Shown in pieces: positions 22,661 to 55,703 of a DNA stretch of 64,000 nucleotides. Source of the stretch: Xylographa opegraphella (Eukaryota); NCBI GenBank assembly GCA_022813865.1, contig JALDZX010000033.1:62001-126000 (forward strand), given 5' to 3'. A model generated the notes under the pieces. The model did no database searches. It saw only the letters and a list, made by a program, of their open reading frames with translations, and was not told the DNA's origin. Positions within the stretch are counted from its first letter, which is position 1; every line of letters starts with the position of its first letter. A program made the position numbers and the translations under genes.

Positions 22661-23175
22661 ATAACGAGTTCTATTGTGGCATGGTATAAATGTACGAAAA
22701 GGGTGCCAGTGGGTGACTTCTTGGCGGAGAATGACACGATCGTGTATAGGTACTTAGACAGACCCAGCCTCATGTATGCGATGATGACCTTGGGGAAGAA
22801 GGCGGTTCCGCTGGCGCTGCGCATTTCCAAGAGGTGGGAATGTCTCAGCACGATAGTGCTGGGTGGTGGTATTGGTGCGGGTCTCTAAATACTTTTTTTG
22901 AATCGGTATATATTGGTTTGTGCAATTGTCACATTTTGGCATATGTAATCTACAATAAGGGATCCGCTGTATTTGCGTAAAGAAGATGTTGTTCGACAAT
23001 CAAGAATATTAGCGTGAACACGCTTCAGGGGAGCGAATATTGTATCATACAAGTATGCATACGAGCTGTACATATGATGAGATGGGGTTGGAGGTCATGA
23101 ACAGACAAGAGATTTTCAACGGCCAAACTATATCTACCTGTTTGCTCAGCCTGGTGCAGTAATATGGCCGGTCTC

Positions 23176-24719
23176 TTATTTCGTCTGTACAACCAGCTGA
23201 GTTCCCTCCTCCATTTTGATCACTTCTTTCGCGTCCCCTGCATTCTCTACGTCATTCATCTGCTCTCTAAGAATTTCTGCCTGCTGCTTAAAGTTGCGGA
23301 GAAAGACGGATGGATCGGCTTCATCGACATGCGGTTTCTGTGCTTCGAAGGCGCTGTACAGCTCAAACAGCGTTGCCATGAAGGCCTCCTTCAGATAGGC
23401 GAACGTGAACCCCTCAGTCAGAGCTGCTATGGCAGCGCAGTCGGACTCAGACATGTCGACTTCAGGAACGTCGGCGAGCTTGCTTCTGTTGAGAAAAACA
23501 CATGTCAGCGGAGATATTACTTTAGTACTACTGACAGCTTACTTCCAATAGGCAGCATACAGCGCTCGCTCTGGCTCGCCTGGAGAATAAAAGGGGTATT
23601 TTCTGTCAAAGCGACTTGGCCGTTTCATGATTGCAGGATCAAGCTTATTTACTGGGTGAATCATCAGCGGGTGGTCGCCATCAATCCTGACCCGAAACAC
23701 TCACAATGGTTCGTGCTCCCTAAGATCAGTATGCCTTCATTGGTTGACAAGCCATCCACTTCATTCAAGAAATAACTTCTGTGCTTGTCGGTGACTAAAC
23801 TATCAAGGTCTTCGATGACGAGAAAGCACGGCGCTGATTTGCGAGCCATCTGGAAAATCATGGATATGGCCCACTCCTGACCTCGACCCGACACGAACGA
23901 TTTGACGTAAAGACTTGGGACAGGATCGGGTCGTTTGCTAAGAGACTTCATGATAGCTTTGATACTGATAGTCTTACCATTACCCGGCGGACCGTGAAAG
24001 ATGATTCCGCGCTACAGTTCATTAAGGGAGTTTCAAAAGTAATGAGTCAATTGACGAGACTATACCTTCCATGGGATGCCAAATCTCTTATAAGTATCAC
24101 GGGCATTGAAGAATCCTTCAATATCCTTGATCAGTAGCTCCTTTGTTCCCTTGTCAAGAACGACATCCTTCTAATCGGAGCTCTGAACGACTTGGTGAAG
24201 TTCCTTACTTTTCGACCAAGCTTGATCGAAGACCTAGATTTCGTTATGAGACTTCGCGGTCCATTCGGCAACTCTCTTGATCAGCTGCTCCGTAGCAGCA
24301 GAACTCCCATAAACACTTTCATCCTCCCGAGCCTGGGTCAGAATGAAGCTGTACACCTTGTCCTGCTGGTAAGGTCTAGACACTTCCACGTTGTAGACAA
24401 TAAAGTCGTGACCCTCCCACTTGCACCTGTATTCCACAATAACATCTGCTTGTATGCAAGATTGGTCTTCCGAGAATTGATTGGGGCTGGTCCTATAGTG
24501 AGATTCCACTGTACTATCTTGAACAAATGTGGCATAACCAGCTTTGGCAAACGCCTTAAGATCACAAGCACTCAACGCAACAACCGAAAGAATCATCCCA
24601 GGGTATTGTGCACGAAGTGAAGAAGTCATAGCCACCTGAGTCGAGACTTTCTGTGCGGACGAATGGAGTTCATAGTCTCTCACAACGTCACTGTGCTGGG
24701 ATGGCTGCAACGATCCCAT
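23176..24719 (-). CDS. AAA+ ATPase (4 exons) with two in-frame TAG codons in exon 1 (editing-restorable gene or young pseudogene)
   Basis: Walker [15 protein letters not shown], Walker [16 protein letters not shown], sensor GSTNH, Arg finger [10 protein letters not shown]; canonical introns; TAG at 24234-24236 and 24171-24173. Confidence 0.88.
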
Positions 24720-25247
24720 CTTGTCCTTGGCAGGTTAAGATTCCTTATAAAAGACTGTAGCTAGTCTTGGACAAAAAAAAATGCTATTCCGGCTAGACCA
24801 GAGAGTACTTTATAACCAGAAGAGAAATTGAGGCAAGAAATTGCAGCATTATTAAGAAATAGTTCCTTACCACCCACAACACATTCGTGCGGGTGGGCGA
24901 CGTTTCACAAGCCATAATCCATGTAGGATACGTCCACCCAAGATGGATACTGTTTCTGTACCACGCTGATGGATGCAGCGACTATGAATCCGTTGGTTGA
25001 GTATGGGCATAGGTGCATGCTCTGCTCTTTGCCTTAAACTCACTGTGGAGTTAATCCCAACTGCGCGTAAATCCTCGCTACTGGCTAGAAGGCTTTAGGG
25101 CAAAGATCCCGTGCCGAGGCTATCCAGCTAGATAACGTGGTGCAATACGGAGTAATTTCAAGTACGAAGTAAGCGACACCATTTCCCGGATGGACGTGTC
25201 GAGGTCCATCCTCGAAGTGATTCTGTGACTACCTTCATGTAAGAGTC

Positions 25248-27005
25248 ATGGCGGACAATGGACCTGAGGCGTCCCCGCGGACCGGGAGCGCCAAGATGGA
25301 TCCAGTACTCCGCAACGCGATCCGGTACACCATCAGCGCAAAGGAGTACAGGACTTTACACGAATACCTACTCAAGCAGTCGCCGACGATTGTCAGAAGC
25401 CGCGCGCCACTGCCTTCCAAATACGATGCGGCTATCAAAAACAAGGATGACTACAATGCTGCAGCCATTCGGGCCTCGCTACGAGTCTTCTTGGCTGCGC
25501 AGTTGGGGTTGAAACTGTGGGATATCGTCACCGAGCAGCTCCTTCGGCGAAGCAAGCCTACTCGGTATTTCTTATATACTCCTAAGCCTTCATTGTTAGC
25601 GCTGATTTGAAGTACTAGGACGACTGCCAAATCTGCTCCTTTCAAGTCGCCCAACTTTCGGCTTTCAATCTCCATATCTCTTATCCTGCTACTACACCGC
25701 GTTCTTCATCGCTTTTTTACCAGACTTCGCGTCAATCTTCTTACTAAAGATGCGGCGCCGTTTCGCCGGCGAAATCCTCGGATATCAAAAGCCTTGACGG
25801 CCCGCCTTGCCCCGGCCATTGGCTCAAGCCTGGCAGGTTTCGTACTGGGCGTGTCCCCAGGCGACCAGTTCAGGATCTCGGTAGCTATTTATCTGGCTAC
25901 GAGGGCAGCTGAATTTGCCTACAATACTTTGGAGGATGACGGATGGTTCAAGAACAGACCCTGGTGGTTTGGAAGCTGGTTATTGATGCCTCCTGTGTTT
26001 GGACAATTGCTGCATGCCTTTTTGTTCGACAGGGACTGCTTTCCGACGGTGCGTTATAGTTGTTCATTCTTAAGATATTGTTCTAACTTTCTTCTAGTCT
26101 TACGGAGACTTTATCCTAAAGAACACCCCTAACTATATTCAGAAGCGGCCTCCTGGATATCCATCTCAGCTGGCGTGGCCGACGAATGATGGGATCGTGG
26201 ATGGTCTCGCAGAAATATCGAAATTGAATTACCCGTACGTTGTGTACATATTGCAGATATCCAGATTCTCAGCTAATCAAGTTTTCGTTGAAGCGCTTTC
26301 GTGTCTCCTATCCTCTTTCCGTCTGCATCTCAAACACTTCCCTCGTCCATCTCCCAGATCTCGCCAATAACGTCGTCAGCCCACCCGTCCATACGCGCGC
26401 TGACTTGTGCCCTCCTTCATCCGCAGGAGCCCTCCTGCTTGCGTACGTACATCAGCTTCTTTCTTGGCGCCGTGCCAATGTTCGCCAAGTTCTTTGCGCT
26501 GATCCTCGGTCTCTTTTCGCTTCCACGCTACAAAATGTTTCTGAAAGACCCCGTCAAGGAGGTGGATCAGCTTGCTAAAACTGTCTTGCGAATGACAATC
26601 TTTGTCAGCGGAGCTATCGGAACCAGCTGGGGCAGCATCTGCCTCTTCCAGTACATTCTGCCGCGGACATTCTTGCCAACACAGAGGTGGTTCTGGGGTG
26701 GCTTCCTGGGAGGGTTTTGGGGTTTCCTAGAACGGAAGAAAGGCCGAAGCCAATTTCTATACTCGACACGTACGAGCATTGACAGTCTCTGGAAGGTCGG
26801 AGTCAAGAGGGGGTGGTGGAAGTCGGGCAAGAATGGAGATGTGTGGGTATTCGTTGCTAGCCTCATGCTACTCAATGCTGTGTATGAGGTCAAACCGAAT
26901 GCAGTCACTTCAGGAGTTGTGAGAAAGAGCCTGGGAATGCTCCGTGGCGAGGGGTGGGTTGATCGGGCCAGACTCGTTAAGAATGAAGGGGCTCAAGAGG
27001 AGTAG
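25248..27005 (+). CDS. TMEM135-like multi-pass membrane protein (4 exons: 25248-25564, 25619-26048, 26098-26234, 26294-27005)
   Basis: In-frame splicing; motifs RPWWFGSWLL, LTCALLHPQEPSC, GAIGTSWGSIC. Confidence 0.82.
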
Positions 27006-32593: not shown

Positions 32594-33841
32594 CTATTCT
32601 CGGACAAATAGACCCGCCATTCCCATACCGGTTCCGATGCACATACTGACAACGCCCACCTCGAGACCCCTTCTCTCCATTTCAGGCAGCATTGTCGCCA
32701 CTTGCCTGGCCCCAGTAGCCCCTAGGGGATGTCCCAGCGCGATTGCTCCTCCTTTCAAATTCACCTTCTCTTCGTCAATCTCGAGTTTCCGCATACAGTA
32801 CAGCGCCTGACTAGCAAATGCCTCGTTGATCTCCCATATTTGAACTTCGGATTTCGTAATTCCAGTGTACTCAAGGAGCTTGGGAATGGCCACTGCTGGA
32901 CCTACACCCATCTCATCAGGGTGACATCCAACAACTTGCGATCCAGCCCATTTTCCGATGATTGAGCTTGAGAGCCCTAATTCGGTCGCGGTCGACCGCC
33001 GCATCAACAGTGTTGCTGCAGCGCCGTCTGTGACCTGCGAGCTGTTTCCAGCCGTAGAAGTGCCGTCGGCTTTAAAGGCAGGCTTCAACTTCGCCAGTGT
33101 TTCCATTGTTGTGTTCGGCCTGATTCCATCGTCTTCCTTAACGGTAATTTCTTTCTCTGTGACATTGTCCTGGTTCTCCTCAAGATCCCGCCATCTCGTT
33201 GTTACCGGTACAATTTCCTTGTCAAATAAACCGTCCTTCCGTGCTTTGGCAGCTTTTTGGTGTGATCGAGCGGCGAAAGCGTCCTGCTCCTCACGGGAGA
33301 CATTATACCTGGAGGCCACATTCTCAGACGTTAACCCCATTGGCATAATACAGTCTCTTGCATCCTTCACAGGGGAATCTTTCAGTTCTGGCCAGAGCAC
33401 TGTAGGAATAGCTCTTGAGCCGTAATTTCTTGTCATAGATTCCATTCCTCCACCAATGCCAATATCAATACTGCCTACCGCTATGGCATACGCAATACTT
33501 GTAATCGCAGCTAATCCGGACGAGCATTGGCGATTTATAGTATGGAATGCAGTTACGTTAGGCAGCCCAGCATGGTTCGCTGCCATTTTTCCAGCCTTTG
33601 CACCTCCGAGCTCTTGAAGCACGGAACCAACAGCAACGTCACGAATCCTGGACGGGTCGAGCTTTGGGTTGGCAGCAAGGGTGGCCTTCAAGACATGGTA
33701 AAGGAGCTCTTCGGGGTAGGCGTCTTTGAGGCCACCCTTTTTGGCGCGAGTCAGAGGAGTCCGAAGAGATGAGAGGATCACGACGTCATGAGGTGACTTG
33801 GTGAGAATGTTTTTGAGCCCTTGATGCATATAGCCTGCCAT
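32594..33841 (-). CDS. 3-ketoacyl-CoA thiolase
   Basis: INRQCSSGL catalytic Cys; NEAF; GGAIALGHPLGATG; SMCIGTGMG; intronless. Confidence 0.96.
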   Translation of the reverse strand: MAGYMHQGLKNILTKSPHDVVILSSLRTPLTRAKKGGLKDAYPEELLYHVLKATLAANPKLDPSRIRDVAVGSVLQELGGAKAGKMAANHAGLPNVTAFHTINRQCSSGLAAITSIAYAIAVGSIDIGIGGGMESMTRNYGSRAIPTVLWPELKDSPVKDARDCIMPMGLTSENVASRYNVSREEQDAFAARSHQKAAKARKDGLFDKEIVPVTTRWRDLEENQDNVTEKEITVKEDDGIRPNTTMETLAKLKPAFKADGTSTAGNSSQVTDGAAATLLMRRSTATELGLSSSIIGKWAGSQVVGCHPDEMGVGPAVAIPKLLEYTGITKSEVQIWEINEAFASQALYCMRKLEIDEEKVNLKGGAIALGHPLGATGARQVATMLPEMERRGLEVGVVSMCIGTGMGMAGLFVRE

Positions 33842-37619: not shown

Positions 37620-38897
37620 TCAGCCCTTCAGTTCGATATTGGTCGATGGCTGATACTGCTTCCCAACGTTGTGGTGGTCCTGTACTGCTTCGGTGACATC
37701 ACTTTCGATCTTGTCTCCAGTCAATGGTGCGTACCTGTTCACCAGATAACGCATATCGTTGAGTATACTACACAACGTGTCAGAATCTTCGTTTCGCTGG
37801 TAATGCTCACTTACAGAATTCTGACTACTCCTTTCGTCCCCGGGAGAGCTATCGAATGTGCCAGGTATATTTTATCGAATACAATCTATTTCTATCGTCC
37901 CACTGATCCATTGGTTCGCTCGGGGGACGGTTTCTCAAGTACTGCCGAATATATGTCTTGCCGAATCGAACGATCTCCCGACGCCACATACCTAGTTCTA
38001 ACTCGTTGTGTGAGTACATTGCAGAGGAGTCAAAAACGACAGGCTCTCCTGTTACAAGGTTGGTTCCGGTATTTTCTTCCCACAGATCGCCGTGTATTAA
38101 TGAAGGTTTCAAATGACGTCGTCTGACTGGAGAGGTTCGAGAATCTGGGGCACAACATGAGAGACTAGCTGCTCGAAGGTCTGCTCATATTCCGGCCATG
38201 TTCCATTCTTGTCAACCTCCCGATAGAAAAACCGCTGCAGAAGTCTGGTGAAATAGAAACACCAGTTGCTATTCCATTCCACGTTTTGTGCATTTGGACC
38301 GTGGCACGTCGTAATCGGGAACCCAAACATCCCAGTTGGAGAGCGGCTTGTAAGGTGCAGCTCTGCAATGCGAGCGCAAAATGCCGTTGGGTCGACCAAA
38401 CTATTGCTCAAATCAAGGAAGTCAAGCAGAAAGAAATACGTTTCTGGCGGCGAGTGACTAAATTTCCCCCAGGCATAGGGCTATGGAACCAAAGATGGCA
38501 TGAGTCTATAGATTTCCGACATAGCACGGAATTCACCTTCCATCATAACTTTCCCCTTATCCTCAGTCGCACACTGTTCATGTAACATCAGCATAAAGCT
38601 GATACAGTTGAAATAAAGGTGGTGACCTTTAGGAAGTAGTCTTTGACAGAGCCCCCCTGTAGCTGGACCGATATACGTGCCGTACGGGTCCATGCAGAAG
38701 TCCAATAACTACTGGTCTCAAGGACAGTTGAGCCAGCTGGCAGGGCTACGGAATTTGTCAGCATAAAAAGAACCACAGAAGAAAAATTAAATGGAAGAGC
38801 GGGACGGTTCCAACCTGCTATAACACTGTCATCAAGGAGAAAGTTTCCCCCAAGTCTCTGGATTAATATCTTTCACGCTACTCTGTGTTTCTGCCAT
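37620..38897 (-). pseudogene. Fructosamine-3-kinase family pseudogene
   Basis: YFLK, MMEGEF, GMFGFPITTCHG, KPSLIHGDLWEEN, YSHNELELG motifs; lesions: +1 in G-run (38847-38851), TAG at 38481-38483, frameshifts near 38118 and 37862. Confidence 0.85.
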
Positions 38898-39864: not shown

Positions 39865-42800
39865 ATGGTAATATATGAAATTTCCCAAGAGCTTCACTTA
39901 CTCTGCATACTAAATCACTCGTATAGTTTCATCGTTTTCGCCGGAAGAGGCACGGAATCCCAGGTGTCGAAAGTAGGACAGCCCCGATTGCAGATTCCGA
40001 TCCACAACAGGACTCGAACCACGATACACGTCAAGGCCGGACGCTCCACCATTCGCCGGTCATCCAGAGTACAATCTCTTCGTCTAATATTCCTGTCGGC
40101 AATAACCTTACGATTAAGGCGGAAGCTCGTCTCAAAGACCGATCCCAGGAACGGTGTGCAGACCCCTTGGGGCTTCACGTCATTTACGAGTCGGGGTCGA
40201 AAGCGACAGTGAACATCATCTTTGTTCATGGGCTCGGCGGTAGCAGTCATCGATCGTGGTCTAAAGATCGGGACCCAGCACTATTTTGGCCTGAGCAATG
40301 GCTTCCCAAAGAGCCTGTAATTTCAGACGCGCGGATCTTCTCTTTTGGCTACAACGCAGCATTTCAGTCCACAATGGGCAAAGAAAACATCCTGAATATC
40401 TCGGATTTTGCGAAAGACTTGTTGTTCAGCATGAAGTTCATGGTGGGAGACGGAGGACATCAGCTTAATTTAAGCCAATTGCCGATCATTTTCATAGCTC
40501 ACTCGATGGGCGGACTGGTTGTCAAAAAGGCCATTATTTTAGGACAATATGATCCACACTACAAGGAGTTTGTGCAGGCAACCCGTGCTGTTATATTCTT
40601 GTCAACTCCTCATCGGGGAACGAACCTGGCGAAGATTCTCAATCGAATCTTGACCGTTTCTGTTTTCGGTCACTCCCCGAAGCAATATGTCTCCGAGCTT
40701 AAGAGCAATTCTCTCACGCTGCAAGAGATCAATGAACAGTTCCGCAGCTTCGCTCCAAGTCTGGCAATCGTTTCCTTCTTTGAGACACTTGAGACAGCCG
40801 TTGGCCCCGCGAAACTGATGGTACTTCACAAAGAATCGTCGATACTGGGTTATCCGGGCGAGATATCTCAGCCACTGAACGCAGATCATCATGATGTATG
40901 TAAGTTCGCAAGCCAGAGCGATCCTAGCTATATAAGTGTCCGGAATGTTTTGAAATATCTTGTAGAACAATTCCAGGCTCGAGATACTGAGGAGTCTAGT
41001 TCCAATTGCGTTAAAGAGCGCCGCAAGATTGAGTCGTTCATTTCAATCTCTTCGCCTCCAGTCGATGATTATGAATTTTACCTGGAGAAGAGATCCAATG
41101 GCTCATGTGTATGGCTGCTTACCGACAAAACCTTTGCGCCTTGGATATCAAATGAATCCAAGTCTTCGGGGGTTCTGTGGTGCAAGGGCCGCCCGGGGTC
41201 TGGCAAGTCAGTTCTGGCTGCTTTTGTAGTTCAACATCTTCAGGAATCGAACCACAACTGCGCTTTTTATTTCTTCCGCTTCGGGGATCAGGCCAAAAGG
41301 ACCGTAAGCGGATTTTTGCGGTCTGTTGCGTATCAATTATCATGTATTGTGCCCGAGTACCGGACGCGGCTTCTCCGGATGATTGATGACAGCCTGACTA
41401 TCCCCCAGGCTGATAGCAAATCCATATGGCAAAAGCTTTTCATATCCGCATTTTTTAACCTTGCAATCGTCAAGCCAGTCTATCTCGTCGTCGACGCGCT
41501 GGATGAATGTGAGGTGCCGAGCTTGCTGTTGAAGTTTTTTGCGGACACACAGGCGTCTATAGTGCCCATACGTATTATTATTATAAGCCGAGATAGCCAG
41601 TCATTATCGAAAATATTCGAAACGGCGCTACGGTCTACGGAAGTCACTAATCTCACGATCGATGACTCACGAGAGGATCTTCGGTTGTATATTGTTGACG
41701 AGATCAGGTCCATGCGTGGAGATCCCGGATTCAAGGATCGAGTAGCCGCCGAGATACTCGATAAGGCCGATGGAAATTTCTTGTGGGTGCATCTTGTTAT
41801 TCAGGAAATCCTACAATGTCATACCCAGGGCGCTGTCGCGGAGGCCTTGACCGGAATTCCAGTGGACTTGGAGGCTTTGTATGAAAGAATGCTTGCTGCG
41901 CTTGAAAAAAACCTACGTTCAGAGGAGCAAGCAATGGGCCGAACAATTCTGTCATGGGCCACATGTGCGAGACGATCCCTTACGCTTTCAGAGTTGGCCC
42001 GAGCATTACAGCCTGAATACCCTCGAATGATAGATCTCAAATTCACCGTCAGCCAGGTCTGTGGGGAGTTTGTTGTTGTGGACAACTTGTCTCAGATATC
42101 TATGATCCATTCGACTGCGCGAGAATACCTTACGAAAAGCTCGACTTCTCGATTCGGAATCTCCATGGTGGCGGCTCACCAGCACATCTTCATGAAATGT
42201 TTGACGGTTCTTGCAGAACCTGGCTTAAGGTCACAAGTGGAACAGCTTGCCTCTCCATCATTCCTATTATATGCAGCTACATCGTGGCCGTATCATCTGG
42301 AACTTACTGCCGCATCTTCAGACGAAGCGTCCTTGATCTTACTCGCAAAATTCTTCCGCAGATCCAGCGTCTTGACATGGATTCAAATTTTGGCTCTTAC
42401 TAGGCAGCTTCGTGTTCTTGTGCATGCTTCTAAGATCATTAACACCTTTATTGAGAATAGTAATAAGCTGGACGCCGACCGGAGTCCTCTGATGCATCGA
42501 CTGCAGGAAAAAGAGCTTCTAGCACTCTGGGCTACGGATTTGATACGTATCGTTGGAAAGTTTGGGAGCCATTTAGTAGGGCATCCAAAATCCATTTACA
42601 GACTAGTTCCATCTTTCTGTCCTCGCAAATCTATACTTTTCCAGCAGTTTGGTCCGAAGCAATTTTCAGCTCCCATGAGTATTTCTGGGACCTCAAATAC
42701 CACTTGGGATGATTGCTTGGCCAAGTTTTCGGTCACAGACCACAATGTTCCTCTTGGCGTCGTCTGCCTAAACCAGTATTTCTGCATTGTAATGTCGGAT

Positions 42801-44867
42801 GGTGTTGTCATCCTTTACCATTCATCTACTTACGAGGAGGCGCGGAGGTTCTCACATGGAGAACGCGTCTTGACTCTTTGCTTTAGTAGTGATGGAGAAA
42901 AACTAGCCACATATGGCTTTACTACAACGAAAGTATGGAGCGTGGCTTCGGCCAAACAGATGCACTCGTTCGTCAACCCGAGTAGGGCAAAGGCTCTTGC
43001 TTTAACTTTCAAGACTGGGGACGATGCACTCATCGTTTTTTCGGACGACAGAGTAGTGCGCTGTATATTCTTGAACCATGCTGACAATAAATGGGAAACA
43101 TATCAGAACATCTTGGGAAAAGATACAGACGGCCGCCAGTACAACTCGCCCCGATATGTCTCGTTTAGTCCTGATAGCGACCAAGTAGCCGTCGTCTTCA
43201 GGGGGTTCCCGCTATCCGTTTGGGGGGTCGAAGAACCTCGGCCTCGACTCATTGGAAGATGTGAGCGTCATGGTGATAAAGGAGAGAGACGTGGAGGATC
43301 TCAGAGTAATTACACCGATGTACAGACCATGTGTTGGAATCCTATCACGAAGCACGTCCTCGGAACTTACAACGACGGTTGCATTTTCAAATGGCATCCC
43401 TTCGAGACAGACTATCACGAATCAGATATTCTGGCAGTTAATATTAAGTGTAGCCCGAATGGAAAATTCTTTGTTACAAGCAGCGTCAGTGGTGTGCTCA
43501 GAATATGGGACTTTCAACATTTCTCGATCATCTACCAGCTTTCTTGTACTTCGTCGATAACAGATCTAGCCATAGATATAGATGGCAGGCGAATCTATGA
43601 TCTCAGAGATACTTTCTGCAGCATATGGGAACCTAATGTTTTACTTCGTCTCTACGAGACCGATGAGAAGGCTAGTGAAACGACAAGTACCAAAGACAGC
43701 TCGATCATGATGTCCATGACATCCGAAAGCTCAGCAGAAATGTTGGAGCCCGTTACCGCTGTTTCTGTGAATCCGCGAAATCTGCAATACGCGGTCGGAA
43801 ATGACGAGGGCTGTGTCAGACTTTTCGGAGTCGATGGCGAACTGATCATGGAATTGTCTCAGGGCTTCATGACTGTTGAGCACATAGTCTGGAGTGACGA
43901 TGGCAGATTAGTTGCCATTGCTGATCTGAGCAGAAGAATCAGCATCAAGTCAGTGAACCACGAAGTTGCAACGACGCCATTCCAATCGGTTCTGGTCTTC
44001 AAAGAGGAAGATATAATTGAACAGATTATTTTCAATTCTTCTGCAGATTTACTATTGGTCTGTACAGCTCGGTTCTTGAATGTGTGGTCTCTGAAGACAA
44101 TGGCGTCAAATTTGACATGGCCACAGACGTTCTCAGGGACAATTTGGGCTACACATCCTTTGAATAATGCTTTACTGCTTGGATTTGGCTTTACCTCTAT
44201 CCATGTATCTAACTGGGCTGACCTTCGGATGAGTAAAGAGGTTACAATTGACAGAACAGCAATCGATGTCGAGTCCAACAAATATCCACAGGAGTCTATG
44301 CGTCGGAGACCCTCAACCCCTCTGCCCATGAGCCCAAGTGAAAATGAGGCCAGAGTAGACAAAGTCTGGTTTGCGTGCGATGGCACGGAAGCGTTGGTAG
44401 AGACATCCTCAGCAGCCTCACATGGAAGGCGAAAGAAGCAATTCATGCTCATTGCCCTTACTCGCCTGCCTATACCGGGCTTGCCCGAGACAGAATCCAA
44501 AGTAACCCCCAGACTCTTACCTCCTGATATTCTTGCCCGAATAGAGATGCCTCTGGGGTTTATCTCGAACGATGTACGACCAGACCGGCGGAGTTCATCG
44601 GTTCAAAAGAGTGACGCTGACTCTTTGCCCGTAACCAGCGAAAACACTCTGGTTTTCCTGGATCGAGAATACTGGATCTGTACCTGGTCCTTCAGCAACA
44701 TCGGCATAGGGTCAAGAGTCCGCCGCCATTTCTTCCTCCCAAGGGATTGGCTTAACCTGGCGTCCTTGGAACTCGCACTTATGCGAAACGATGGCACTTT
44801 GATGTGCCCGAGGAACGGGGAAGTTGCGCTGGTTTGGAACGGACTGAAGGAGGAGTGGATTGAATAA
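39865..44867 (+). CDS. NLR-like STAND protein: alpha/beta-hydrolase (SesB/PGAP1-like)-NACHT-WD40
   Basis: IIFVHGLGG, AHSMGG nucleophile elbow, STPHRG, NADHHDVCKF; Walker A GRPGSGKS, Walker B LVVDALDEC, ADGNFLWV; WD40-like C-terminus. Predicted ATG-only exon 39865-39867, intron 39868-39926, exon 39927-44867 (about 1647 aa). Confidence 0.92.
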
Positions 44868-45524
44868 CAAAGTTAGTAGCGCTTCACGTTTGCCCACGTG
44901 CTACATACCTTCTCGTGGGATGTCACATTACACGTCAACGACCCAGTACGTTCTGAAACACCGAACTTCTGGCATTATACTTATTGAAAAGCTTCCTGGC
45001 ACTCATTCATGCATAGAAGAATGAACATAGGTTTACGAATTCAGAAGCTAGATACAGATCTTATCATGAAAGAAACCACAATTGAGAATATTTTGGAAAT
45101 CGAATGACGGAAGGAGAAAATCAGAGCCTCGATAGATTTGTAGCCCTTCTTGATCAAGACTTATACAGTACCTTCCGGTTCTCTGTAAATCTCCTCAACT
45201 TGTACTCTGCATGGAAGTACCTGCTTGTATAATTCCATAGTGCTAAACTAACCAACGCTTAAACCTCACCGCTGTACTTCATCCTCTGGTCAAATTCCAC
45301 TCACCGGACGTTCACATTCTCGGAAACTGATGATTGATGATATAGGTAGTGCTACGAATTTAAGGCATTTTATGCACGATGGTGAATTCCAGAACACCTC
45401 CCATGGTCAAGTTCCCTCAGTCAGCGGGGAAGTTTGGAAGGTCGTGCTCCCCGTTGATATTCTCGAGTAATCTGCTTGTTCTAAGCCATCACCCTGATCA
45501 AGATTTGGTATCCCCAAGAATACC

Positions 45525-47401
45525 ATGTCTGTCTCCATAGACGATGAGATCAAGGTCCGACTCGGGTCAGACGTGTCCGACGGTATAGACACTGTATCTA
45601 GTAACTCACCTAGCAGAGCTCCAGCAGCAACTTTGGAGAATAGCACGACCACTGCTGACCCACCTAACGCTCCCTATTCTACTTTCAGCACTGCTGAGAA
45701 GCGCGCTATAGTCTTTCTCGTTGCCTTGGCGGGCTTTTTCTCGCCGTTCAGTGCTTTCATCTACTTTCCAGCTTTGCAGGACATAGCCAATGCCCTTTCT
45801 GTATCTCTCGAAGTGATGAACCTTACCGTCACGCTATACGCCGTGGTTCAGGGTATAGTCCCCTCCCTGTTTGGCGATATGGCGGAAACGCTGGGCCGAC
45901 GGCCTGCTTGCTTGCTCATTTTCTCGATCTACGTGCTTGCTTCCGTGGGCTTGGCGCTTCAAGACTCATACCCTGCTTTGATCCTTCTACGCATGGTGCA
46001 GAGTGCTGGCAGTTCAGGTATATGGCTCCACTCGAAGTAAAGAGAAGTGAGCGTGATGGACTAACTGGCTGGCCATAGGTACCATCGTCCTTGCATATGG
46101 AGTGATCGGCGATATTGCAGCTCCATACGAACGTGCAGGTTACGTTGGTGCCGCCCATGTAGGGTAAGCTATACTTCTTACGGTACCTAGTGAGGATATT
46201 GACTAACTTGATCCTCATAATTTCAACTCTACTCCAAATCTCGGACCCTGTCCTCGGTGGTGTCCTAGGAGATAATTTGGGCTGGAAATGCATATTCCGC
46301 TTTCTTTCCATTCTATCTGGAGCATTGCTTGACCATCATGTTCATCCGCTTTCCGGAGACAGCCCGAACACTGGTCGGGAACGGTAGCCTGGCTGCAACT
46401 GGGATCAACCGCACCTTGATCTCAGTAGTGCAAAACAGAAGACAGGGCGACGAACCAGTCCTCACTCGTCCTACATTTCGCTTCCCGAATCCTATACGCT
46501 CCCTCCGACTCGTATTTCACAAGACGACGTCGCTTGTGCTCTTCTCGAATGCTATATTCTATATGAAATACAGCTGCGTGCAAGCCTCGCTCTCGCCGCT
46601 ACTCATCAAGGTCTATGGTCTCAACGAATTACAAGTAGGACTGGCTTATTTGGCATTCGGTATAGCTTGTGCCGCTGCCTCTTATACAGTTGGTAAATTT
46701 AAGAGTCCTTCACGCCGGACAATTTACTAAGCGTGTGCAGGCAAGATAACAGACAGAGACTATCGACAAATAGCTTCTTCACTAGGTTTTGCAATCGATA
46801 AAGTGAAGGGCGACGACCTTGCTAAATTCCCCATCGAAAAAGCGAGACTGCGATCGATAATGGTACTACATCGTTATATCCTCAGCGTCCACGCTAGGGT
46901 ACGGCTGGGCCATTGAGGCGAAGACAGTAAGCACGATAATCGTTGATGTTTCGGTATTATTTGTTGACCCGATTTAGCCCCTCGCGGTTCCGCTTGTTTT
47001 CCAGTTTCTCGTTGGCCTGACTGTGACGGGAGTCTTCAATGTGTGTATCTGACCCTTAGTCAAGATTTATTTGACTTTCAGCTTCTTTTATAGGCCTGAC
47101 AAGCGAATCTATGCAGGTCTGTAACACTCTGATCGTGGATCTCCATCCTGATGCTCCGGCCACTGCTAGTGCCTCCGTGAGCATTATCCGCTGCAGTGTC
47201 GCGGCCATAGGGGTCTCCGTACTGCAGATTCTGTTTGATAGTATCGGTGTTGGATGGACGTTTACCATCATCGCCGCCCCTTGCTTTGGCACGATACCTG
47301 GCCTGCTGATCGTACGGCGGCGTGGCTGGGACTGGAGAAAACAGAAAGCTACCAGGGCGACTGAGCTAATGAAGGAGAAAAAGACGACTCATCCTCCATA
47401 G
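45525..47401 (+). pseudogene. MFS DHA1-type (QDR-like) multidrug transporter, disrupted
   Basis: PYSTFS..EKR, FSAFIYFPAL, GRRP, LRMVQSAGSS, FPETARTLVGNGS, FPIEKARL motifs; apparent +1 frameshifts at about 46247, 46325 and 46860; intron acceptor reads TAA rather than TAG at 46218-46220. Confidence 0.8.
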
Positions 47402-48119
47402 CGGTCACGGTAATACAACGAACATCGTCTGAACACAATATCCCGCAACGAAGTGCTTGACAACACAGGTCGATCGCGATGATATCGGTTACGCGGGCCG
47501 CTCCCTACCGACCGTCGCATTATCTACTGCTCCTGCAGTTCGAGCGTCTCCGATGGACATGGTTATCGTATGAACGACTACTACGTTGATCAAGTTGCCT
47601 CACCCGCCCTTTAGGGTGACACAGAACCCGGTGGGGGACATTCGTGGCCTTCGGAGTAGGGGGAGTATCGTGGCCTCGGGGAGTGGGGGATGACGGTGGC
47701 CTCTGGCAATTCCGTACCACCAAGGCTGAGCAGCGCTCTGCATACTCGAGCGCGAATCAGGAGAGTCCGTTTCAAAGTCGAAAACCTCCGGTCGCAGATT
47801 GTTGTGTCATGTGGACCGGTCGCTTATTGGCTGACGAACATGAAGAAGCGCGGAGATTTGATTCTATGTGCAATTGTTGCACCTACTGCAAGGGCTGTTT
47901 GCAGGGGCGCGGTGCAGGGTTTGATAAACACCCATGGGGGAGGTTTTTGATATCTCAAATCCCTGGAAACCGTCAGTTCCTCTGAGCAATGGTCGTATCG
48001 GTTACTCCATGTCCTGTTGATGAGCTACACCGACTCCCTCATATCGCCGCAAGCAGTCCTTTGCTTCGGAGAAGCCTGCCGGGCAGCCTCCGTGCACGGT
48101 GCGATCAATACTCCTCGTG

Positions 48120-48882
48120 ATGCGTCCCGGCCTGACCACAGCTCGCCTCGTCACGCTCCTCGTCGCCCTCCTGCCCCAGTCCGCCCACTGCATGATGGCC
48201 ATCTGCCTGCAGTCCAACACCGAGCCCCGAGCGTCGGAGTGCCAGCTCGCGTTGCGGCAGATCCTCGCAGACACTCACCCGTCCAACTTCGGGCGCGAGG
48301 AGACCTGGGTCCCCATCCCGGACGGCATGGACGACGACCCGTACTTCGACGACATGATGGCTTGCGGGGCCCAGTGGATCCACGGTGCGTCTCGCAACGG
48401 CCACCTTCTTAACCTTGCGCCTTTGCCGTCCCCCAGGCTGCTGCTGCTGCTATTGTCGTTGTTGACATCATCGTCCTAACCGTGCGTGCTGTTAGGCTCC
48501 TGCGCCGTGACGATGGGCTGCGACCGCCGCGCGCGCGTCTCGCTGCTCCAGATCCGCGACACGGCGGCCCAAGCCGTGGAGGCGTGCATGGAGCCCCATG
48601 GCCAGAGCCCCGCCCGCGCCTTCAACGCCCTGGCCTTCTTCGAGGACAACTTCCGCTCCGGCTGGTGGGTGACCGTCGGCCCCCGGGACGACTTCCTGTA
48701 CTACCGCAGCGAGGTGGATAGCAGCCTGGAGCTGTTCATGACGCGCGCCGGGGCTTCGATGGCGTATTTGCTCGCGTGGGTACGTTTTGTTTTCGGGTGC
48801 GATGCCGGGGTTCCCGGGGAGCGTTTTCGTACTGACGCCGGCGTGTCTTTAGTATCAGCTTCAGCTGGGGGCCTTGGGATGA
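48120..48882 (+). CDS. Small secreted Cys-containing protein, candidate effector (3 exons: 48120-48384, 48496-48779, 48853-48882)
   Basis: Signal peptide MRPGLTTARLVTLLVALLPQSAHC; canonical GTGCGT..CTAAC..TAG and GTACGT..CTGAC..TAG introns; about 192 aa with 6 Cys after the signal; high GC. Confidence 0.75.
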
Positions 48883-49265
48883 AAAGGAGGGAGAGTCCGC
48901 TGTGCGGCGGCGAGCGCGTGGCTGCAGAAGACAGGTTCACTCTGGGAGTGAGGGAATCGGGGGCGGGGTTCCGATCCTGCTAGATCTGCCGGCGTCTGGA
49001 AACGTTGAGGGGAGAGTGGATATCGAGCGTTGTATAGTTAGTCTACGCAGACCTGTCACGTTTGTGACAGGTAATGCAATGTCATCTCAGGGCACAAGCT
49101 GTCTCCGAGACATCAGTCATTCGTCACAAAATGATTTCATGCTACCTAGCTATCGTGAACCTCGTTATTCTCGTTTGTAAACCACACTCTCTCATCCTCA
49201 CACTACAAGTGCGTCCCGGAGCACTGCCTCCAATCCCAATCGCAAGACTCGACACTGGACGCGAT

Positions 49266-53360: not shown

Positions 53361-55232
53361 TCATCCCCACTTGGCCGTGTGAGGGCACAAGATCCCATCG
53401 ACCGAGTGTCCCTGCGTCCCGTTCGTAGACTGATGATAATCTTGGCCCGCGGGATAGACCCAGTCCTCGACGCTAGGGTAGTAGCCATACACCAGCTCGG
53501 CCGCACCTCCACTCGTGCTTCTCCCCATCCCATTGCTCGCGAACGTAGGATTGCCCATCATGGAGGCGAACCGGAATGCATTCGTCGGCAGTCCCGACGA
53601 GTCCTCGGGCAGGTAGGATGGAGCGCTCGTCCCGAACGCATGCCGGGATGATTTCCGAGGGCGTTCCGCCGGCGCGGACCGACTTTGTTGGGTGCCGATG
53701 TCCTGCGGAATGGTGAGCATCAACGCCGTTTTCGCATCGACGTAGGATGATTTGCGTTTGAGCGATGGTTTCCGCACTCTTTTGAGCTCGGGTTCGTGCT
53801 TGACATAAGGCGAGACGCTGGGAGTGCTTGGTAGTGTAGATGATTGAAGCGTGGTGCTGGAGCTGGGAGAGAAATTCCGCCATTCGTGATGGCTGGCGGG
53901 CACTTGGCTGTAGGGATAGCTATCATTACCCATCACATCTGCTTCCTGATGGGCCGGCATGTGCACTTGATGTGACTCGGGAACGAGCCTTCGTGAGGTC
54001 GCCGGTGAGGATCCTGCTCTTCTTCCTGGTGGTCGAGAATCGGGCAGGGGAACGTCCTCCTTTGTCTGGAAGTTCCGAGGACTTCGGCCTCGAACCACAA
54101 TCGGCCCGGAAAGCGCTTGGCAGATGGATACTTCGGCCCCATTCGAAAGCGTGGCGGTGACGAACAATCGGACCGTAAAATGCTGCTGTAGCTCTTTCCG
54201 GCGTCCGTTATTCGCCGTGGCAACCCGGAACTGTAACCGCTTCCACGCGAAAGGATAGATGTTGAATTCTCCGTCGACCTCATGGCTTGACGTGGGATCA
54301 AGCTGGACCGGGACCGGTTCCTTTTCCGTCTTCTCCTCTACGACGGGCGGCGCCCCCGTCGCTGATGGCTTGAAGGGAACCGAAATGATCTTGATGGGAC
54401 TGCCTTCCACCGATTCCGATGCCGATATCGACAGTCTTTGGGATACGATTGCGAGGCGCTCGCCCTGATCGGTCACCACGGACTGGATCATCCGCGGTAC
54501 GGTCACGTAGCCCGTGATCTGAAACAGATTCCGCCGGTAGCAGGTGAGCTCGGCCGGGGTGCCCGACATGTCTTCGGAGCCCGCTCGTGATGATTTGGCC
54601 AGAAAGAACATGCCATGCAATTGTGCCGCCAGTGATACCGAAGTCTGCCGCATGGAGTAATCGAGGAGGCCAAAACTGCAGGTTGAGCGCTGGAAGCCGA
54701 GCAACTTGTTGCCCGTTTCTATCTCCGGTATTTGCGGTGACGGTGGGTCGTACACGGGGACTTCTGTGACCTCCTGCATCGGCTCCTCGTAACTGGAAGC
54801 GTAGGAATGCATTCTTTGGGGCGCCAGCGGTTGGGTAGCATAGGTGAATGCGTCGGCCCTACAATTGATCTGAGCAAAGGGGCTCCCGTGCCGGTTGTGG
54901 TGGAGGGAAACTGACCTGGAGTACTGTCCAGCTGTATATGCATCCTCGGGATACGAATACGACGGTCCGCGCTTCCGATATCGTGCGGTGGTGAGGATGG
55001 GCTGGAATGAAGATGGACTTGCACTGTACATTGGCAGACAAGATGAGTCGTATAGGTCCATTGAACGTCTGGGTGCTTCTACATGAGCAACGAAGACCAC
55101 GCCGTTTGGATGAAAACGGTTAGAAGGAGCAGAGTCCGGGGCCACGGGGAAAGGGTCGGTGAAGAGGAAGTTGGAAATGGCAAAGCTGTTTCGAGGAAGC
55201 CAAAGAGAGCGACGAGTGGATGCATATAACAC
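53361..55232 (-). CDS. NDT80/PhoG-family transcription factor, VIB-1/XprG-like (5' end uncertain; first in-frame ATG at 55061, upstream exon possible)
   Basis: LHGMFFLA, ELTCYRRNLFQITG, WKRLQFRVATANNGRRKELQQHF, PIVVRGRSPRNF. Confidence 0.88.
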   Translation of the reverse strand: MLYASTRRSLWLPRNSFAISNFLFTDPFPVAPDSAPSNRFHPNGVVFVAHVEAPRRSMDLYDSSCLPMYSASPSSFQPILTTARYRKRGPSYSYPEDAYTAGQYSRSVSLHHNRHGSPFAQINCRADAFTYATQPLAPQRMHSYASSYEEPMQEVTEVPVYDPPSPQIPEIETGNKLLGFQRSTCSFGLLDYSMRQTSVSLAAQLHGMFFLAKSSRAGSEDMSGTPAELTCYRRNLFQITGYVTVPRMIQSVVTDQGERLAIVSQRLSISASESVEGSPIKIISVPFKPSATGAPPVVEEKTEKEPVPVQLDPTSSHEVDGEFNIYPFAWKRLQFRVATANNGRRKELQQHFTVRLFVTATLSNGAEVSICQALSGPIVVRGRSPRNFQTKEDVPLPDSRPPGRRAGSSPATSRRLVPESHQVHMPAHQEADVMGNDSYPYSQVPASHHEWRNFSPSSSTTLQSSTLPSTPSVSPYVKHEPELKRVRKPSLKRKSSYVDAKTALMLTIPQDIGTQQSRSAPAERPRKSSRHAFGTSAPSYLPEDSSGLPTNAFRFASMMGNPTFASNGMGRSTSGGAAELVYGYYPSVEDWVYPAGQDYHQSTNGTQGHSVDGILCPHTAKWG

Positions 55233-55703
55233 CGGCTAAGGGGGGGACACATTTAGCACGGTGAGCAGGCTCCTTCAGCTGAGCCGGAGGGTGTGAGGGT
55301 GGCATGTAGGGCTATGGAGGAAGAGTAGCATTAAGCATTCAATGTGCTGAGAGGACAGAGGGACGGCGGCCAACGACTGGGGAGCGGTCGCTGCATCGCA
55401 GGGGCAAGCCATGTGCAGACGTTGCTTGTGGTCAGAGACATTCCATCTTAGCCTCGCTCGCACGACAGGGGTGGTTGGGTGTGATGGTGGAGGAGGAAGA
55501 CGAGCCGGGTTTTGGGCAGTGAATCGGGGCAAATCAACAGCAGCAACGCGAGGTTGCGGAGCAGGAGCTTCGGCAGGATTTGCGTTTGGGGCTTTCCATG
55601 GGCTTTTTTTGTCCGCCGTGCTTTTGCTTTGCTAGGCGTTAGCTGGGCTGAGGACGAATTGGTGAAGGGTGAAGGGCGATGGGGGAAAAGGGAGCAGGGG
55701 GTT

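Follow-up and report, generated by a model that had tools for sequence, protein, structure and literature searches.

Two in-frame TAG codons in a Xylographa AAA ATPase gene: probably a young pseudogene, less likely a target of RNA editing

We found that a classical AAA ATPase gene of Xylographa opegraphella (minus strand, positions 23176-24719 of the window, that is, the whole 64-kb stretch of DNA that was analysed) contains two in-frame TAG codons, and that it is probably (with a probability that we put at roughly 0.6) a recently inactivated, lineage-specific pseudogene, at the species or strain level, of a fast-evolving and probably dispensable fungal ATPase. Specifically, two G>A transitions would have turned two tryptophan codons (TGG) into TAG, the unedited transcript would yield only a 161-residue N-terminal fragment without the ATPase module, and the stops would go unrepaired, being too young for more decay to show. 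The genomic DNA carries disabling mutations that are absent from the orthologues, as in a young unitary pseudogene. If it is simply a fresh pseudogene, the locus is a routine case of turnover within a family of rapidly evolving fungal ATPases. On present evidence, we rank restorative RNA editing of the two stops below the very recent, lineage-specific loss of a gene that turns over fast, and the weight left beside these two readings falls to a clustered mutational origin or to a product that is independent of editing.

The gene runs from an ATG to a natural TAA stop (23176-23178) through four exons, which together hold 459 sense codons plus the two TAGs. Exon 1 (24066-24719, 218 codons) encodes a fungal N-terminal domain without a Pfam name and the start of the single AAA module, and contains both stops: codon 162 (24234-24236; site 1) and codon 183 (24171-24173; site 2), the latter at the entry to the AAA module. 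These are the positions, 21 codons apart, that an earlier note on this DNA had given for the pair, and its description of a gene with three canonical introns and no frameshift proved correct as well. Introns 1 (24012-24065), 2 (23652-23704), and 3 (23486-23542) measure 54, 53, and 57 nt, with the ends GTATAG..TAG, GTGAGT..CAG, and GTAAGC..CAG, respectively, all of the GT..AG type. Across intron 1, the junction between exons 1 and 2 reads as a continuous protein matching the relatives P0003, P0004, and P0157, and the whole length of exon 1 could be aligned with P0155 (81% identity), as well as with exon-1-type open reading frames (ORFs) of relatives. The AAA core lies in exon 2 (23705-24011) and includes an intact Walker A motif, as the same note had stated (GPPGNGKT, 23970-23993), and the stretch FLVIEDLD (about 23808-23825), both positions being read off the translation. 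The translation of exon 3 (23543-23651) is colinear with P0003, P0004, and P0157, and exon 4 (23176-23485) ends in the natural stop. Two antisense ORFs (24138-24617 and 23101-23772) had no Pfam match.

The stops are not an error of this assembly, since a Logan contig of sequencing run X1 (28,010 nt, word depth 162) had zero differing letters over positions 23100-24800; X1 is possibly the source of the window itself, so that this agreement is no check on the sample, and rare variants are lost from contigs. Two further runs of the same study, X2 and X3, yielded nothing beyond fragments of 67 and 86 nt that were less than 90% alike, or no match at all, which does not prove that the orthologue is absent from them.

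Assignment to the classical AAA ATPases rests on a significant AAA profile match together with the Walker A motif. Exon 2 matched PF00004 in Pfam with an E-value of 1.5e-13, and the orthologue P0004 matched it with 2.6e-22 over nearly the full profile (1-129 of 131). In the PDB, the P0004 AAA module matched an archaeal VCP-like ATPase, Afg2, YjoB, and the p97 D2 domain (E 1e-42 to 1e-36). The protein shares with the archaeal VCP-like ATPase, the D2 domain of p97/Cdc48, Afg2, and Bacillus YjoB the classical-clade AAA module (PF00004), site 2 aligning with the tryptophan before the DIGG stretch of the VCP-like ATPase, but differs from them in having one AAA domain behind a fungal N-terminal domain. 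The latter, comprising the first 140-180 residues or so, had no Pfam match, and its best Atlas score (0.84) was not convincing; in the family alignment it was conserved. The family counted 520 representatives at E<=0.001, 240 of them at E<=1e-10, while a metagenome scan returned one locus, whose sole relative was only 26% identical.

To identify the residues that the stops replace, we used 152 aligned members, comprising 150 of the 520 matches, as listed, plus P0003 and P0004. At site 2, tryptophan is near-invariant among the matches listed (145/152, with three phenylalanines and two tyrosines), and the column aligned with the W of 'vhWdDIgg' in 5vc7_A, the xWxDIGG-type stretch of the D2 domain of an archaeal VCP-like ATPase. 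Site 1 is a hydrophobic or aromatic column in which, among the same 152 members, tryptophan (48) is scarcely more frequent than leucine (44) and tyrosine (41), followed by phenylalanine (11). In P0157 from X. soralifera and P0155 (ENA), the two nearest relatives (83% and 81% identical to the window gene), both sites hold tryptophan, as they do in P0005 (49%), while P0004 from X. bjoerkii (76%) and P0003 (JGI; 73%) have leucine and phenylalanine, respectively, at site 1 and tryptophan at site 2. The proposal that both stops stand at tryptophan positions therefore held for site 2 and, for site 1, in the nearest relatives but not across the family, and the consensus proposed for site 1, 'EIWVFD', was only partly right. 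Given the near-invariant tryptophan at site 2 and the tryptophan of the two nearest relatives at site 1, both stops are most simply read from the alignment as TGG>TAG changes.

The same relatives also speak for recent inactivation. All five that were available have sense codons at both sites (the nearest being 73-83% identical in protein), such that the expectation that the TAGs would be kept in related species failed. One of them, P0004, is the syntenic orthologue: in X. bjoerkii, the locus tags of the AAA protein (MMC18_005045) and of a thiolase (MMC18_005040) are five apart, on contigs equal in size (135,895), and in the window a thiolase gene (32597-33790, minus strand) is located 8 kb from the AAA gene. 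This thiolase was 97-98% identical to proteins from five named Xylographa species, which places the window in that genus, and 91% identical to that of Ptychographa. Congeners share 73-83% identity in the AAA ATPase gene and 96-98% in the thiolase, so that the former is, judged by these protein comparisons, evolving much faster than its housekeeping neighbour. Our searches returned no AAA protein for four of the named congeners that had given a thiolase match, for which loss, breakage, or annotation failure could account. In addition to the stop-free relatives and the rapid evolution of the gene, the pseudogene reading is favored by a lineage in which editing is unreported, by decayed neighbours in the window, and by the mutational class of the stops. 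Among 25 residues specific to this lineage, 21 had a single-base origin that could be classified: 12 GC>AT transitions, to which class both stops also belong, 5 AT>GC transitions, and 4 transversions.

What weakens the pseudogene reading is that the gene bears no other sign of decay. We sought relaxed constraint and further decay through rate tests and conserved columns, and these revealed neither acceleration nor excess residue loss. We took the 109 columns whose conservation among 38 full-length outgroup members was 80% or higher, and the window gene deviated in five of them, compared with seven in P0003, five in P0004, and an outgroup median of seven; all five deviations were conservative and four were common to close relatives. 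In relative-rate comparisons, unique changes numbered 18 versus 14 (with P0157), 11 versus 11 (P0155), and 32 versus 22 (P0004), none of the differences being significant. Inactivation is thus compatible with these results only if it was very recent. Moreover, under a model of this coding sequence the ratio of nonsense to missense changes is near 0.057, so a second stop would usually bring many missense changes with it, and these were not seen. Two stops without a missense load fit a very young pseudogene and an edited, functional gene equally well. The identity of the two stops also weighs against the pseudogene reading, since random nonsense mutation in this coding sequence (kappa 1-5) would give TGG>TAG once with P=0.04-0.11 and at both stops with P=0.002-0.012, although the locus was chosen for that very pattern; the chance that both stops would simply be TAG is about 0.25.

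Restorative editing is the alternative that survives best, and we consider it unlikely rather than negligible. In this scenario the gene is a putative A-to-I target of a deaminase of the Tad2/Tad3 type in sexual tissue, where both UAGs would become UIG and be read as tryptophan and the full ATPase would be made only there, while in other tissues the transcript would give the 161-residue fragment or be degraded. Several features of the locus are consistent with this. UAG is the sole stop that a single edit in the preferred context turns into tryptophan, and both stops are UAG; tryptophan is present at both sites in the two nearest relatives and at site 2 in nearly all members; and apart from the stops the gene is fully intact and shows no acceleration. 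There is also precedent: among 71 premature-stop-correcting (PSC) pseudogenes of F. graminearum, six have two sites (PMC10776026), so that a two-site 'double lock' is not new. According to the same paper, TAG at F. graminearum PSC sites derives mainly from TGG but often from other codons, and some PSC sites carry premature stops in other classes of Pezizomycotina, whose editing status it leaves undetermined. The window gene resembles these Fusarium genes in its TAGs at tryptophan positions within an otherwise intact, conserved frame and in having two sites. It differs from them in its Lecanoromycete host, in stops that its relatives do not share, in being known here from DNA, and in a site 1 that has neither the hairpin nor the flanking preferences; furthermore, tables S1-S6 of that source contain no AAA or ATPase entry.

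The lineage carries much of the argument against editing. Xylographa belongs to the Lecanoromycetes, outside the lineages with demonstrated sexual-stage mRNA editing, and our literature search turned up no paper that describes mRNA editing in a Lecanoromycete or a lichen. In a review (PMC11156358), editing is described as shown in several Sordariomycetes and Pyronema only, and genome-wide editing as not found in cleistothecia of Aspergillus nidulans or apothecia of Botrytis cinerea, with the tested representative of the sister class among the negatives; which Pezizomycotina classes edit 'remains to be determined', in the words of that review. The Tad3-Ame1 interaction, and with it the machinery, has been placed in the ancestor of Sordariomycetes (PMC11087585 and PMC10776026), with an independent system in Pezizomycetes (PMC11087585), whereas PMC5381528 argues that editing is a conserved feature of filamentous ascomycetes. 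That Xylographa performs sexual-stage A-to-I mRNA editing, with the AAA ATPase as a putative two-site target made only in apothecia, is accordingly a doubtful proposition, if anything a little more so than the general scenario. Were it true, stop-correcting editing would extend to the lichen-forming class Lecanoromycetes, where it has never been seen, and it would have arisen either a third time independently or earlier than the published Sordariomycete model allows. Editing of this gene would be the first indication that lichen-forming fungi restore reading frames in this way, and would bear on the question in which classes of Pezizomycotina editing occurs and how many times it evolved.

Structural cues did not discriminate, given the high hairpin background and mixed flanks. 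Using the ±30-nt protocol of PMC4817773, site 2 was predicted to fall in an 8-nt hairpin loop (in three of four window sizes) and site 1 in an interior loop. The flanks of site 2 (-2 U, +3 A, +4 G) are a partial fit to Fusarium preferences, while those of site 1 (-2 C, -3 U, +3 U, +4 C) fit poorly. Hairpin loops hold 145 of the 375 As and 24 of the 55 UAs of this mRNA anyway, a background of 39-44%, compared with 62.4% of the edited sites of F. graminearum reported in PMC4817773. Overall, the double TGG>TAG and the lack of other decay speak most strongly for editing, and the lineage, the stop-free relatives, and the decayed neighbours most strongly against it; the selection of the locus for this very pattern counts against it as well.

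A third possibility concerns the origin of the stops within an ordinary pseudogene: both may have arisen in one clustered, strand-coordinated G>A event, through RIP-like or deaminase-type hypermutation at TpG, which we regard as improbable. The two changes are both G>A at TpG, on the same strand and 63 nt apart, and GC>AT transitions dominate the lineage-specific changes (12/21). A TGG>TAG change is also TpG>TpA, the classic RIP-type nonsense mutation. Against this, only two of the 12 GC>AT changes have a TpA context, and Trp168, which lies between the two stops, has kept its TGG. By the usual thresholds for RIP indices, the values were negative for the gene (TpA/ApT 0.65, (CpA+TpG)/(ApC+GpT) 1.28), for the window as a whole (0.70 and 1.22), and for every 4-kb bin. 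RIP would also require a partner of which we saw no sign here, in that no close duplicate was detected and a second X1 contig matched over 36 nt only. We therefore reject RIP; the earlier view that heavy RIP is unlikely was borne out, as was the survival of six TGG codons and many CAA/CAG codons in the gene (7 CAA and 17 CAG by our count).

Mechanisms that would bypass the stops fared no better. Among GT..AG spans of up to 400 nt, 188 cover both stops, but the real introns of this gene measure 53-57 nt, and the shortest in-frame span would cut 34 codons (150-183) from a poor donor (GTTGCC) and delete residues invariant in the relatives. A GTAAGG..TTAG span between the stops is 38 nt long and out of frame, and would leave stop 1 in place. 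Useful re-initiation downstream is not expected, since the first methionine after stop 2 falls behind Walker A. Lastly, a useful product made without editing, either the 161-residue N-terminal domain alone or the full-length protein through UAG readthrough or suppression, is very improbable: the 161-residue ORF is intact and has been called as a separate protein (P0156), and its domain is conserved in the family, but the position of that methionine leaves no useful start past stop 2, no tRNA gene of any kind, suppressor or otherwise, lies within the 64-kb window, each stop is followed by G or A and not by the C that favors readthrough, and two readthrough events in succession would multiply low efficiencies.

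Returning to the pseudogene reading, two other loci in the window show that ordinary gene decay occurs in this region, and they are broken in a different manner, through frameshifts and a stop at a non-tryptophan position, as had been claimed. The fructosamine-kinase-type FN3K gene (PF03881; 37852-38708, minus strand) is interrupted within its domain by an in-frame TAG (38481-38483); the Pfam alignment runs on past it (profile 52-177), and the stop falls in the 'LVPxPYAWG' position, which is not tryptophan-like. The gene also changes frame at about 38127-38165, profile positions 79-177 and 181-262 being split between two ORFs that overlap. In the MFS transporter gene (45498-47400, plus strand), a frameshift at about 46330 interrupts a continuous transmembrane stretch before 'FPETAR', with 'ILSGALL' in one frame and 'TIMFIRFPETAR' in the next, and with neither room for an intron nor a homopolymer. 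Like ordinary young unitary pseudogenes of this sort, the AAA gene has disabling lesions that are fixed in the DNA and absent from relatives, and it belongs to a fast-evolving family. It differs from these two loci in the kind of lesion, since the two TGG>TAG changes are all that it carries and no relaxation could be measured.

The divergent neighbour of the AAA gene, in contrast to these loci, is probably not broken, since its in-frame TGA (25608-25610, plus strand) lies inside a likely GT..AG intron (25565-25618) of 54 nt, a multiple of three. Elsewhere in the window, a TAA (48477-48479) separates ORFs of 151 and 167 residues at 48024-48983 (plus strand), neither with a Pfam match, and represents either an intron or a broken gene. 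A single open frame of 1646 residues (39927-44864, plus strand) encodes an NLR-like protein with an alpha/beta-hydrolase N-terminus of the PGAP1/DUF676 type, an NTPase of the NPHP3_N/NACHT type, a winged-helix region, and WD40 repeats. Finally, the window contains a gene for an NDT80/PhoG-type DNA-binding protein (53364-55235, minus strand; PF05224, E 1.4e-36), from a family that includes meiosis regulators.
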